Source: a virus (Duplodnaviria; Heunggongvirae; Uroviricota; Caudoviricetes). Taken from it: a stretch of DNA of 31,389 nucleotides. The DNA is taken from IMG/VR virus record IMGVR_UViG_2713896769_000025; one strand, given 5' to 3'. Numbering within the stretch: the stretch's first letter is position 1; the number at the start of each line of letters is the position of its first letter. A program made the position numbers. Below are positions 9,001-15,000 of the stretch, piece by piece.

Positions 9001-12000
9001 TATCAACCAAGAGATTGATAATTGCTGCCTTCAAAAAAATGCAAAAATTTCTTCTGAAGAGAGGAAAATGGTCTTTTCTCTTGTAAGTAAGGAGTTTGAA
9101 CTAACTCTTGATGTTAAAGCGGCACAAAGTTCTATTAATCATATAATAATAGGAAATGCTTCTTTTGGCAAAAAAATGGATGCTCTTTGCGATGGTATGA
9201 GCCGAGCTGTAAAAAACAGTACAACAGATTACATAGCAAACGTGCTTGCAGACAAGTTTTATCAGAAACATATCGCCCCGGGTGTTGATATTGTAAAACT
9301 ACGAAATGAAATCCCAGGTTATATGAGTCGTGTTATACAGGGGTAAGGTTGGAGGAGGCTATGCGCCAGTATCATTGGTTTTCATCCTGTAAAAAGATAT
9401 GAGTAAAATATACAACAGGCGTTACACTATATGTATGTATCCAAATAACTCATAGTTCACCTGTACAGTTATAAATCGTAAAGAAAATTGCAGCGCGTCG
9501 TACGCAGAAACGTGCTGTGATTGACTATTTATAGCTTTGTCACAACGACAAGATTCAGTAGTGTTTACACGGGCGGGAGAAATGACGGAATAACTAAATA
9601 GCTGCGCCTAATATCGCACATTTTTGCCAGCCCATGTTTGCCTTCGGGGAATGGACTGACGGATTCCATAAAATGGCGAACTTTTTCAATAGTTGCCACA
9701 TTGAGCGGCACTGATGATTACGCGTTATTGTGGCGTGAAGTATCTGCCATAGCTATTCAAAATGATTCACCCATGGAGATTAAACCGGCTGATAAATGAC
9801 TCTGCACTTCGGTTTATCCTTCAGCCAGCGCTGGGTTTCCCGGCCTTTGTGGATAATGTAGTTGTCCTCGAGCAGCGTGATGGTTTTCGTCCGACAGTAT
9901 GTAGCTTTAAGCCGCTTCAGCAGTCTGATGAACAGCGCCGAACTTTTGCTGTTGGCGCCCACACAGCTGACTTAACCTGTCCCGCTGTGCAGCGCTACGT
10001 CCAGAGAATATTTTTCATTTTGTTCCGGCGTGACCCCTCGTTTTTGCTTCCCGAGCAGTTTCCAGTCCGCACCGATTTTGGGATTAAGATGGATAAATAC
10101 TTCATCTTCATAAAAGACCGGATGCTCTGTGCTGCATTCGTCCAGTGCGTTATGGATTGTTGCCATCTTTTTATCTTTAGGCGGGGCACGGATACGTAGA
10201 GTTGGCGCAGCCCTTCGCCACACAAGCCCCACAGACGACAACCAGCGGCGAATGGTTCCAGCATGTAACAGGCAGCCGGTTATCTCATTGATTTTTATTG
10301 TCAGCAGTTCTGTACTCCAGCGTGAATAATTGTAGCCAAAGTCGCGAGTGAATATTTTACCTGTTCACGTAATAGTGTGTAGATATGCGCAAACGGCCAG
10401 CGGCGGGCTCGCTCGGCAGGTAATGATTTCAGTCCCTCAACACCCGACTGTGTGAACTAGTTAATCCAGCGCCCAACAGAGGAACGGGCGCAGCATAGTG
10501 TGCGGGCAACGTCGCTGACACGGTCGCCCCGGTGCAGCATCAGCATGGCTGTCAGCCTTTTATGGATGGCTTTCTGTATTAGGCGTCGTTCGTCACGGGA
10601 AATTGGTGGTATGATCGACATTGCTCAGTCCGGTTGGTGATTTGTATTGATTTGGCGATTGATCAGATCGCACAATCGGGTTGAGTTCCCTCTAAATGAT
10701 CTACTATTCTGCGCAGCTATTTAGTGAGTATATATTTTATGCTTATAAATTAGATTAAAATAATCCTACAATTATTCTGATGGAGTATTGCTGTGGAGGA
10801 TGGCTTTTTGTTAATTATCGAAAAGTAAGATATATGCTTTAGGGATAAAATTATGCCATTTTCATTTAATTTGTCTTCTGGAAATTACTTGTCAACACAA
10901 GATGTTGAAGTTTTACAACGTGCGACCAGAGATCATCAAATGGAAAGACTCACAATAGGAGAAAGATCGTTTTCTGTTCGCTATCAGAGTGCTATGGACG
11001 CTTTTATTGTAGATCCTGTTCAAGGGGAACTATATTCGGGTTTAAGCCATACAGAACTAGCCGATATCATTAGATTGGCTGATTCTGTTGAAAATCAATT
11101 GAATGGAGGCAATTCATTTCTTGATGTATTCAGTACATATATGGGGCAGGTTATTTCTGAATTTATGCATAGTAATGATAACAGAATTGAATTGTTACAG
11201 CGGCGATTACATTCATGTTCATTTTTAGTTAATATTGAAGAAATGTCTTACATAGATGAAGCATTACAGTGCCCGATTACGCTGGCAATTCCTCAACGAG
11301 GTGTTTTTTTAAGAAATGCTGAAGGTTCCAGAGTATGTAGTTTATATGATGAAATGGCTCTTTCTCGTATAATTAATGATGGGATGCATCACCCACTAAG
11401 CAGAGAGCCAATAACATTATCAATGCTTGTGGCCAGAGAGCAGTGTGAGTTTGATTGCAGTATCGGTCACTTTACGGTGAGGAGTGATTGTTATTCAGTG
11501 TAGACTCGGTACACGATTTTGTGTGAAGAGACTCTTATTAAAAGTTAGCATCAAAGCGGTCATCAAACTTGATAATAAAGTGACTCATTGCTATTCGCTG
11601 GTCCTTAAGGGATATTGCCCATTTTGTATCGTGAACTGAATAGCAAGTAGCCACCGTCCTGATTTCAACGCATTATCAGGCGCTTCTGAAGCGGCATACC
11701 TGCATGACAGGATGAGTGCAAAGGGGCGCTGTTACGATAATGCTAGGGCGGAAAGTTTCTTCCACTCACTAAAAGTCGAATGCATTTACGGCTAATATTT
11801 TATGAGTCGGGAAATAATGCAGACGGCTGTGTTTAATTAGATCTAGTGTGATTACAATCGGTGGTGCCGACACAGTACTTGTGGCTGTCTCAGCACGGAA
11901 CTGTTTTGAAAAACAGAACCTTGATTAGGGCTGTGTCCACATTACGTAGGTAGGATCACCCCACAGGCACCACATGTCATGCATGGATTAGGATTGAATG

Positions 12001-15000
12001 ATAAATCGTAAAGAAAACTGCAACACCTCGCGTGTAGCACCTTGTTAGCGAACTTTCGAAAGTACGAGTATTGTATGATTTCCAGCAGTTATCAATTTTA
12101 CGTATTAATCAGTGAATCAACAACTCGTCAGCAGACTCTCTTTGCTGTTGAATTTTTTGGAACGTGTATAGGGCAGAAATTTTTGTTTTGGGACATGGTT
12201 GGGACGCCGTAGTACATACGAACTCTGCCGAATAACGTATGATATTATTTTTTAATCTCTTGGAATACATTATAGAAACAGAATGCTCTTGGGCGATTTT
12301 TAGTGATTGTTTAAATAGCCCTGTCATGCAGTTAATGTGACGGCAACTACCACTAAAACAACTGATATTTAAAGATATTATTTCAGAGTCTGGCTCTATG
12401 GGGCATGTATGGGACACTCTCCGTCAACTGCTTATTGAGTAGTTCTATTTGCCCGATATTGTTATCTTTCATCCATGCTCCGTAAACGTTGAATACCATT
12501 TGTGCATTTGCATGGCCCATTTGGTTTGCTATGAAGCTTGGATTCGCTCCTGCCGATAATGCCCAGCTGGCATAAGTATGCCTAGACTGATAGGCTTTTC
12601 TGTGCCGCAGTCCTGCTCGCCTTAATGCAGATGCCCAGGAATCTCTGATGGAATCTGCTTTATAGTGGTGACCGACTTGCTGGCATTTTTTTACCAGTTG
12701 CGGATTAAAAACAAACGTGCATTCATGGCGTGCGGTGCGACCGAACTCCCGAAGCTTGACGTCAATTTGATACTGAGGGCCAAGTCTTGTCATTTCAGCC
12801 TGGCTTTTCAGGGCATCAACAGCTGGTTGAACAAGATGAATAACACGATCAGTTCCCGCTTCTGTTTTTGGTAGAGTGAACTCCCCGAGTTTTGTATAAT
12901 TACGACGGATAGTCATTGTTTTAGCTTTTAAATCAATATCCTCCCAGGCGAGAGATATTAGCTCACCGTGACGAATGCCTGTGTATACTGCTAAGGACCA
13001 CAGGTTTTTTGTTTGTTGATGGTGACAGGCATCAATAAAACGAATAAATTCGTCACGTGTGAGCGGATCTGGTTCTGTTCTGGATCTCTTTAATGGTGTC
13101 AGGCCGTTAAATGGGTTTGACACGATATAGCCGTTATCAGCCGCAAATTGAAACATTCCTGCAATTGTCGTCATGTAGTAATTAACCGTAACTACTGACC
13201 TCCCTTTAATCGGCGTTGTTTTTCCGTTAGAAAGATTATGATACCCGGTCAATAAATCTTTCCTGATAAACAGTAAATCTTCCTTTGTTACCGACGAAGC
13301 AAGACGTTTTTCCCCTATGCGAGGAAGCATGTTTCTCACCACGGATTGATACCGACTGAATGCATTACTTCCTATCTCAATTTTCTTAAGGTCCAACCAT
13401 TTTTCCGAAAGTGCCTTAACGGTTATCTCTCTTTTTCCCAGACCAAAGTGTTTCAGGTTAGGGGAATTAGGGAACTGCGCGGCGTAGTCGAAACTCCCCA
13501 TTCTGATTGCAAAACAAACAGAAGTGCGAAGCTCACCAGCGATCTTCCGGTTTTTGGCGGTGTCAGGAACACCGAGGTTTTCTCTGACACGTTTGCCATT
13601 ATAGTGAAACCATATACGGAGTGATCCTCCATGGTTTTCAACGCCTGTCGGGTATGATGCGTTACTCATAAAACCTCCCAGACGTCCAGGAGCATTAACA
13701 GGTTAACCGGAACTTGCATTTTTGGCACCTGGTTGTTTCTGGTTTTCGATCCATCGCATAATTTCTTCGATGTTGTACAGGCATTCACTGTAATGCCCCG
13801 GATCACCTTCTACAGCGTAATGGCGGTATTCTTTTCCCTGCATCCATGACTTTCTTCTGGCTCGCTCGATGGTGCCAGGCTTTAGCCCTGTTGATGCAAT
13901 GAGGACTCTCTCCGTACACCATTTGCTGGGGGTTATCTGATAGATGATTGTCTGCATGCCAACCTCATAAAACTTTCATCCACGGCAGTGGCACCACACT
14001 TCAAACATTCGCTTCACATCTTCTGTACAACACGGTGTTGTTTATGCAGCGAACAATTTTTACCGGGTAACCGGCACTGTCGGTATACAGTTGTCCCTGA
14101 TTAATCAGAGCGAACATTTTTTCTCCTGCTCTCTGAATAGTGAGAACTTCAGAGCCGTATGTTTGTAGCGGGTTCAATGCTGATAATTTCTGCTGAGATA
14201 AGCATCCCGGCAAGCCAGAGTTCCCCGGACAGGTCTTCATCCTGGCATATCAGTTCGCCAATATTAATGGTGGCCATGATATCCGTTTTCCCTGTGCGCT
14301 CATCCAGGACTTCTTCATAAGGCAGCGTTGCGTACAGGCTTTCAATAGCGCAATTGATAACATCCAGTCCGGTCAGATTGCCGCCGACAGTAACTTCGAA
14401 TGTTTCGCGGTATTCCCATAGTCCGAAAGTTAATCGAACGGTTTGTTTTGCCATGCGTCCGCACGACGTCAGATTCGGGTCATAGTTCATTATTTGCGGT
14501 TGAGTATTCTGGTTGTTCATCTGATTTTCCATTAACCCGGCGGTTTGCCGGGCGTGTAAGTTATTTAATCTGGATAAATGGTGTATTGGCACCACTGGTC
14601 ATGTATTGCGGCAGTGTACCGTTCCACTTGTTGATGGCTTCCAGCTCCATGACGCCAGGGTTCTGGCGCAGAGCTTCGCCGCGTAAACGAATGGCATCGG
14701 CTTCTGCCAGGGCTTTTGTTCGAATGGCATCAGCCTGTCCGGCAGCTTCTGCACGCAGCATGTTGGCCTCCGCTTCACGTTGCTTGACTTCCTGTTCGCG
14801 CTGCAGGGTTTTCTGGTTTGCCGTGACTTTGGCGTTAATGCTGTCGATAACGGTTGGCGGGTATTCCGGTTTACCTACATAAGAGAGGCTCATTACCTGA
14901 ACGCCGATGGGGGTCATCTCTTCCTGAATGTCTTTAAGTGCGGCATCCAGTAGTTCAGACTTGCCGCCGTCGATAAATTTGTCGGTGGTCATTTTGCTGG

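Follow-up and report, generated by a model that had tools for sequence, protein, structure and literature searches.

The window, by which we mean the whole 31,389-nucleotide stretch of the IMG/VR virus record IMGVR_UViG_2713896769_000025, contains the left junction of a Shiga toxin 2a (Stx2a) prophage, and we conclude, with a probability of roughly 0.92, that this phage used its own integrase to nest inside an older prophage resident at ompW (PPompW), at a 21-bp mimic of the bacterial attachment site (attB) in yecE. In the mechanism that we propose, the decoy occupies the extreme right end of PPompW, just downstream of the nleA/nleH/nleF/nleG/espM1 locus, and the circular phage, with its attP ...GTTGCGTCAC GCAGTTAA TGTGACGGCAAC..., would recombine with the prophage site ...GCCCTGTCAT GCAGTTAA AGTGGCGGGCAT..., the exchange being carried out by the phage's own integrase inside the shared 8-bp core GCAGTTAA. 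PPompW would thus be split about 430 bp before its own right end, which would give a prophage inside a prophage rather than a tandem pair, and direct nested integration would leave a right end reading ...TGTTGCGTCAC GCAGTTAA AGTGGCGGGCATCCTCTTC..., followed by 228 bp, the 3' end of ompW and yciE. The evidence presented here consists of the junction sequences, an exact rebuilding of the empty site, the identity of the integrase and the recurrence of the junction in many genomes. Such a prophage-in-prophage arrangement is already known and has been experimentally characterised (2021), and the window is a further instance of it.

The known system was described by Nakamura, Ogura, Gotoh and Hayashi (PLoS Pathog 2021; PMC8112680), who reported that Stx2a phages enter a 21-bp 'attB in PPompW', later called attB-in-PP_1. 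This site, 5'-GTCATGCAGTTAAAGTGGCGG-3', lies downstream of the effector locus and is derived from yecE (100 bp, 87% identity); attP circles were detected by PCR and sequencing, and packaged DNA after mitomycin C, in the O145:H28 strains 112648 and 12E129, and the distribution of the site in enteropathogenic E. coli (EPEC) and in E. coli that produce Shiga toxin (STEC) was surveyed (PMC8112680). The published 21-mer matches the window in a single place, 12323-12343, with 2 mismatches (0 matches in 100 shuffles); the phage side holds both of them, in line with the left attachment site (attL) of an integrated phage. GenBank LC567841 (Stx2_12E129_PPompW), 99.6% identical to positions 6500-31389 of the window, has 21 bp marked as a 'duplication due to insertion of Stx2_12E129_PPompW', and these correspond to 12323-12343. 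The initial annotation of this DNA, made from the sequence alone, was that the Stx2 phage appeared to have entered the remnant of an older prophage or to lie beside one; our results refine this, the site being not an arbitrary spot in a prophage but the specific 21-bp yecE attB mimic known as attB-in-PP_1.

The 21-bp attL of the nested prophage (GTCATGCAGTTAATGTGACGG, 12323-12343) is a hybrid of attB-in-PP_1 and attP. A five-way junction comparison places the shared core at 12328-12335, and because GCAGTTAA is the sole stretch identical across attP, the decoy, the yecE attB, attL and the right attachment site (attR), strand exchange must fall within it. A three-way alignment of the window, the empty site of strain EC4115 and the attL of strain 493/89 at yecE shows the switch from PPompW to phage inside this core. 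To its right, the non-coding part of the phage P' arm (12336-12382) separates the core from the stop codon of the integrase and is identical to the int-adjacent sequence of yecE lysogens (493/89, locus L003); the arm itself extends into the 3' end of int. When the left flank of attL in the window is joined to the right flank of attR in strain JNE132847 (locus L004, 9325), the empty site of EC4115 (locus L002, 6372) is restored base for base. An exact rebuild of this kind is the signature of conservative site-specific recombination, and we read the junction as the product of such a reaction, without deletion; it also supports the capacity of the nested phage to excise.

The decoy and the primary site are nearly the same: the yecE attB reads CCAC GCAGTTAA AGTGGCGG and the prophage site TCAT GCAGTTAA AGTGGCGG, and the K-12 yecE attB and the decoy have GCAGTTAAAGTGGCGGGCAT in common. 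The unoccupied site, taken together with the 79 bp that follow it on the right, aligns with the first ~95 bases of K-12 yecE, inverted, with 91% identity over 98 bp (blastn; 87/98 ungapped). The attP that can be reconstructed, CGTCAC GCAGTTAAT GTGACG, carries a 6-bp inverted repeat around the core, which may correspond to the core-type half-sites of Int.

The enzyme matches this specificity. The integrase gene (12383-13669, minus strand) had been called intact, and it is indeed an unbroken open reading frame (ORF) of 428 aa, encoding a lambda-type tyrosine integrase of yecE specificity with both expected parts, an N-terminal arm-binding domain (PF12167 Arm-DNA-bind_2, E=4.7e-24) and a C-terminal catalytic domain (PF00589 Phage_integrase, E=1.6e-19). 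Over the 428-aa alignment with its counterparts at yecE in O157:H7 strain 493/89 and in strain 22-250, in both of which this integrase directly abuts yecE-yecN-cmoA, one residue differs, in one comparator only, which answers the comparison of integrase specificity that the initial annotation had suggested. Next to it lies the excisionase gene xisR (13703-13957, minus strand; Pfam DUF1233 putative excisionase, E=2e-29; named xisR by RefSeq), and the sequence rightward from 12318 adjoins the DUF72 gene yecE in hundreds of E. coli genomes. The remaining window is a Stx2a lambdoid prophage, with early genes, replication genes, Q, three tRNA genes and stx2AB. As yecE is a classical integration site of Stx phages (PMC8065619), and as the integrase matches that of yecE-resident prophages, the sequence identifies the incoming element as a yecE-type Stx2a phage.

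No host core gene had been visible at the left junction, and the search for a truncated one in 11957-12382 bears this out: blastn of window 11401-12500 against K-12 yecE gave no match, and blastn against K-12 yecE, ykgJ-ecpE and ompW returned only a phage-borne block, ~70% identical to ykgJ-ecpE. The interval 11957-12382 holds no annotated gene in related RefSeq genomes (in all but one row among the matches listed) and is made of four parts: the ykgJ-ecpE-like block, the att-proximal arm of the old prophage, the 21-bp attL and the arm of the incoming phage. Its yecE-like sequence is confined to the 21-bp att, the 79-bp yecE-derived remainder being phage-borne and placed at the other end of the Stx phage; in this the junction departs from that of a primary-site yecE lysogen, its left flank having no similarity to yecE beyond the att. 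DUF72 labels under some of the matches were considered as signs of a host gene in place and rejected: they denote hybrid yecE ORFs, annotated in yecE lysogens, that start in the phage arm.

Leftward, the order described at first, a non-coding stretch, an IS3 fragment and nleG, was borne out by comparison with RefSeq and by the Pfam family T3SS_NleG. The type III secretion effector gene of the nleG family (10853-11503, plus strand; T3SS_NleG, E=9e-45) stands last in the effector (exchangeable effector) locus of PPompW, and RefSeq has a DUF1076 protein at the equivalent position of comparison locus L001. The IS3-family transposase fragment (~11665-11909, plus strand; coordinates transferred from the RefSeq annotation of L001, 20866-21110) is a pseudogene with stop codons in its translation. 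Further upstream, nleA, nleH1-2, nleF, nleG, espM1 and an nleG-like gene are present in the window and in L001 alike. Up to 12339, the left flank is the right end of the defective lambda-like effector prophage at ompW (PPompW, Sp9-like).

The right junction, which the initial annotation had proposed to look for, was located in JNE132847, a strain with the same left junction. There the Stx2a phage ends in ...GTTGCGTCAC GCAGTTAA AGTGGCGGGCATCC..., and PPompW resumes beyond it for ~430 bp, with a 79-bp yecE-like piece, 228 bp and the 121-bp ompW att, followed by yciE and the trp operon; it is into the older prophage, then, that the Stx2 phage went. The att of PPompW consists of 121 bp of the ompW 3' end and is separated by 307 bp from the 21-bp site on its left, and since two prophages with different attachment sites are involved (the 21-bp site versus the 121-bp ompW att), the arrangement is nested and not tandem. 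Among 5426 complete genomes, the occupied junction is present in 16, of at least the serotypes O157:H7 and O145 (H28, NM); strains 28RC1, CFSAN004176 and PV15-279, which are among our matches, are also discussed in PMC8112680. A 501-bp attR query matched over its full length in 18 (JNE132847 and 17 others). The comparison with lysogen-free strains, likewise suggested at first, gave an unoccupied site in O157:H7 EC4115, where the prophage sequence runs on uninterrupted for ~300 bp more and then meets the ompW 3' fragment. Window positions 1-12339 were matched in 319 complete genomes with the match ending at the junction (12339), and the interval 11957-12343 (query 1-387) was matched only up to the junction in ~490 genomes. 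We infer a matching attR in the window's own genome. For strains 08_4358 and OkiPb01707, each of the two queries (junction and attR) matched a single place; to judge from these match counts, both strains seem to have no copy of this phage type besides the nested one.

Several points weigh against nested integration. The window ends inside the Stx phage, and its own right junction lies outside, so that the nested topology is taken from near-identical loci elsewhere. The attP and the decoy are perfectly identical over 8 bp only, and the left core-type half-site of the decoy, TGTCAT, is poorer than those of yecE (CTCCAC) and attP (CGTCAC). Finally, the bases contacted by Int are predicted ones, and the candidate arm-type sites described below come from repeated motifs only.

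The most serious alternative, which we nevertheless consider improbable, is that a Stx2a prophage at the true yecE recombined, through Int or RecA, with the inverted decoy in PPompW, in an inversion or exchange whose far end would abut the yecE 5' end and yecD. Decoy and yecE are oppositely oriented on the chromosome, inversions between prophage clusters have been reported (PMC8112680), and the window by itself, with its right junction outside, is compatible with such an origin. An inversion of this sort exists in CAU16175 and PEC240, where PPompW, with its effector locus and att, meets the 5' end of the real yecE, followed by yecD and aspS; that type, however, leaves a different junction, without int beside the effector locus. 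In JNE132847, moreover, the gene order at attR is normal, the remainder of the decoy coming first and then the 3' end of ompW, yciE and trp, and the 17 further genomes that match the attR query over its full length speak against the inversion as well.

As an observation in its own right, the partner junction of the inversion in CAU16175 (locus L010, 1-9640), composed of the phage P arm, the att and the decoy remainder, lies ~0.8 Mb away. This implies that in CAU16175 and PEC240 a large segment of the chromosome lies inverted, with its end points at the decoy and the true yecE, and it shows that the two inverted att copies can recombine.

General homologous recombination, or an assembly artefact joining prophage repeats, is less probable still. 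Lambdoid prophages do have long repeats in common, which can mislead assemblers and drive RecA exchange, but attP and the decoy share 8 identical bases within a 21-bp imperfect match, too short for RecA, and the same junction recurs in 16 independently finished genomes and in records sequenced from long PCR products. The least credible possibility is that two prophages lie in tandem at ompW with one attachment site in common, as strain 112648 was originally read before its att sites were analysed: both prophages are at the ompW locus, but the junction alignment refutes this, together with the yecE-type integrase of the Stx phage, a junction core GCAGTTAA unrelated to the ompW att, and the position of the PPompW remainder with its 121-bp ompW att, found past the Stx phage and not between the two. 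Of the two options left by the initial annotation, tandem or nested, only the second therefore stands.

If the Stx2a phage is thus nested in PPompW, the origin of its landing site deserves attention, a question that the authors of PMC8112680 did not address. We think it likely that the prophage-borne attB is a fossil attR (P-O-B') of an ancestral phiP27-like yecE phage, carried off together with 79 bp of yecE DNA; the route of capture, whether aberrant excision (as in specialised transduction) or recombination between prophages, is a matter of speculation. What suggests this is that the yecE homology is one-sided: it extends from the crossover core rightward only, over 79 bp, and the left flank has no yecE similarity. 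That left flank, the putative fossil P arm (12051-12327, the right end of PPompW), is homologous to the att-proximal right ends of yecE phages: positions 12051-12335 are collinear with the last ~282 bp of phiP27 and with prophages at the real yecE in SE11 and ETEC1732, with 76-77% identity over ~285 bp and 81-83% in the last 200 bp of the arm, and the phiP27 record ends in an annotated attR reading ...GTCAC GCAGTTAA. At 134-138 bp to the left of the core, a motif, GGGRCATxxxTGGGAC, occurs in the window (GGGACATGGTTGGGAC, 12190-12205), in phiP27 and in the P arm of the Stx2a phage, and another copy (GGGGCATGTATGGGAC, 12400-12415) lies in the P' arm, within the 3' end of int; repeated, and in the P arms at a conserved distance from the core, these copies are plausible arm-type integrase sites. 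If the decoy is a fossil attR, the attL of the window would be an attP-like hybrid, composed of the old P arm, the core and the new P' arm, and it may retain arm-type Int sites.

Similar relics occur elsewhere. In phi80 (JX871397; locus L014, 2500-2790) and mEp237 a DinI gene is followed by P-arm-like sequence, GCAGTTAA and an N-terminal fragment of yecE, 106/110 identical to K-12; the phage's own attP, with an unrelated int, is ~1.2 kb away, the fossil being upstream of it in phi80. The JX871397 annotation calls it an 'N-terminal fragment DUF72 pseudogene'. Since the same fossil is found in both, captures of this kind have occurred in viable phages. A further candidate, the 99% match of CAU16175 and PEC240 to the decoy left flank joined to the real yecE/yecD, resembled an extant yecE phage with this arm; it is a product of the inversion described above and was not used as evidence. 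Genome contigs were scanned for the species from which the diverged yecE fragment came: an exact 38-mer had no match, and a degenerate scan found E. coli and Shigella only. The text of PMC8112680 does not mention the words aberrant, relic, phiP27 or phi80, and a literature search for earlier statements of a fossil attR found none, which is no proof of absence; the proposal is a modest, testable and possibly new addition.

In O157:H7 MB9-1 (locus L009, 5001-5444, core at 5195) and ~50 similar genomes, ompW carries a variant of the 21-bp site, GTCACGCAGTTAAAGTGGCGG, whose left flank in MB9-1 has ~96% identity with the P arm of the Stx2a phage itself, with an insertion sequence (IS) or transposase remnant and a DUF4765 pseudogene upstream. 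Sites of this type look like the attR remaining from a nested phage, most of which was lost later by deletion. Upstream of the 21-bp att in the window, the ykgJ-ecpE-like block (11963-12137; ~70% identical to K-12, 142/203 by blastn, E=1e-24) appears to include the published 96-bp attB-in-PP_2, which would occupy 12042-12137, 185 bp from the 21-bp att, a spacing as in PMC8112680. A block of the same kind, 85% identical to K-12, is found at the right end of the Stx2a phage of JNE132847 (L004, 8687-8999), beside nleC and a DinI-like gene; the nested phage thereby offers a further potential landing site of the attB-in-PP_2 type, as PMC8112680 also states. In the window, a terminator-like hairpin with a T-run (12129-12147, plus strand) starts at the 3' edge of the ykgJ-like block and reaches 10 bp beyond it. 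It was the sole such site in a promoter and terminator scan of 11600-12500, which otherwise remained at background level, and an Rfam search of 11500-12500 gave only a sub-threshold chance match to a microRNA.

An orphan ORF of 102 aa (12109-12417, minus strand) has its start within the 3' end of int, crosses the att and extends into the arm of the old prophage. The corresponding frame of yecE lysogens enters yecE, and RefSeq annotates there a hybrid DUF72 protein whose start lies in the phage arm; in those lysogens the phage supplies yecE with a new N-terminus, and the 102-aa ORF of the window is probably meaningless.

Elsewhere in the window, the effector locus contains an HK022-type integrase pseudogene (3025-4183), ~85% identical in DNA to the integrases of HK022, mEp235 and some Stx1a phages, and unrelated at the DNA level to the int of the window and to the ompW-type int. 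The tail-fibre C-terminal fragment that follows it (4044-4183) repeats a region just upstream of window position 1. The segment 3025-4183 looks like the stump of another prophage, and in the effector locus two prophage ends have probably been fused. Within the Stx2a phage, the three tRNA genes (27170-27421) lie just upstream of stx2A and have a CAT anticodon (Met according to ARAGORN, Ile in RefSeq), Arg-TCG and Arg-TCT; a tRNA cluster of this kind is usual in Stx2 phages. Downstream of stx2B, the window has ~330 bp (28892-29222) where JNE132847 has ~710 bp with a frameshifted iraM-like region, and flanking identity falls to 94.8%, which marks a replaced segment.

The nested site lets a Stx phage lysogenise a strain in which yecE is occupied, or reside there as a second copy; nested integration can convert EPEC into STEC and duplicate stx2a, and the arrangement stacks type III effector genes at one locus. 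These consequences have been argued and partly demonstrated (PMC8112680), and what the window provides is a further instance, not a new principle. Should the fossil attR be real, it would provide a testable origin for attachment sites inside prophages, old junctions being recycled as landing pads, and similar decoys could be found through one-sided host homology beside phage P-arm sequence.

Compared with known systems, the junction has both distant and close relatives. Integration by lambda Int at secondary or hybrid sites is well known, through secondary attB sites and through polylysogeny at attL or attR, and as in the textbook case attP recombines here with a non-primary attB that has the same overlap region; the site in the window differs in being conserved and carried by a prophage, and it appears to be P-O-B' (attR-like) and no chance look-alike. 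The phi80 and mEp237 relics have the same P-arm/GCAGTTAA/yecE 5' layout as PPompW inside phages with a different integrase, but the fossil of phi80 is not known as an integration target and its P arm is more diverged from that of the window (66-70%). Canonical yecE lysogeny, as in phiP27 and the Stx1a, Stx2a and Stx2d phages of O157, O26, O111 and O145, involves an essentially identical integrase, and the P' arm and core GCAGTTAA are identical to those of the window; the difference lies in the bacterial partner, which in the window is a copy of the 5' end of yecE carried by a phage; the chromosomal yecE is thereby left undisrupted, and a second phage copy can coexist with one at yecE. Closest of all is the attB-in-PP_1 system itself, with the same 21-bp att, the same defective lambda-like ompW prophage, the nleA/nleH/nleF/nleG/espM1 locus just upstream, and the same yecE-type integrase and excisionase. 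Nothing material separates the two; the window is no exact copy of any record searched (99.4-99.6% identity), and its source is probably another strain with the same arrangement.

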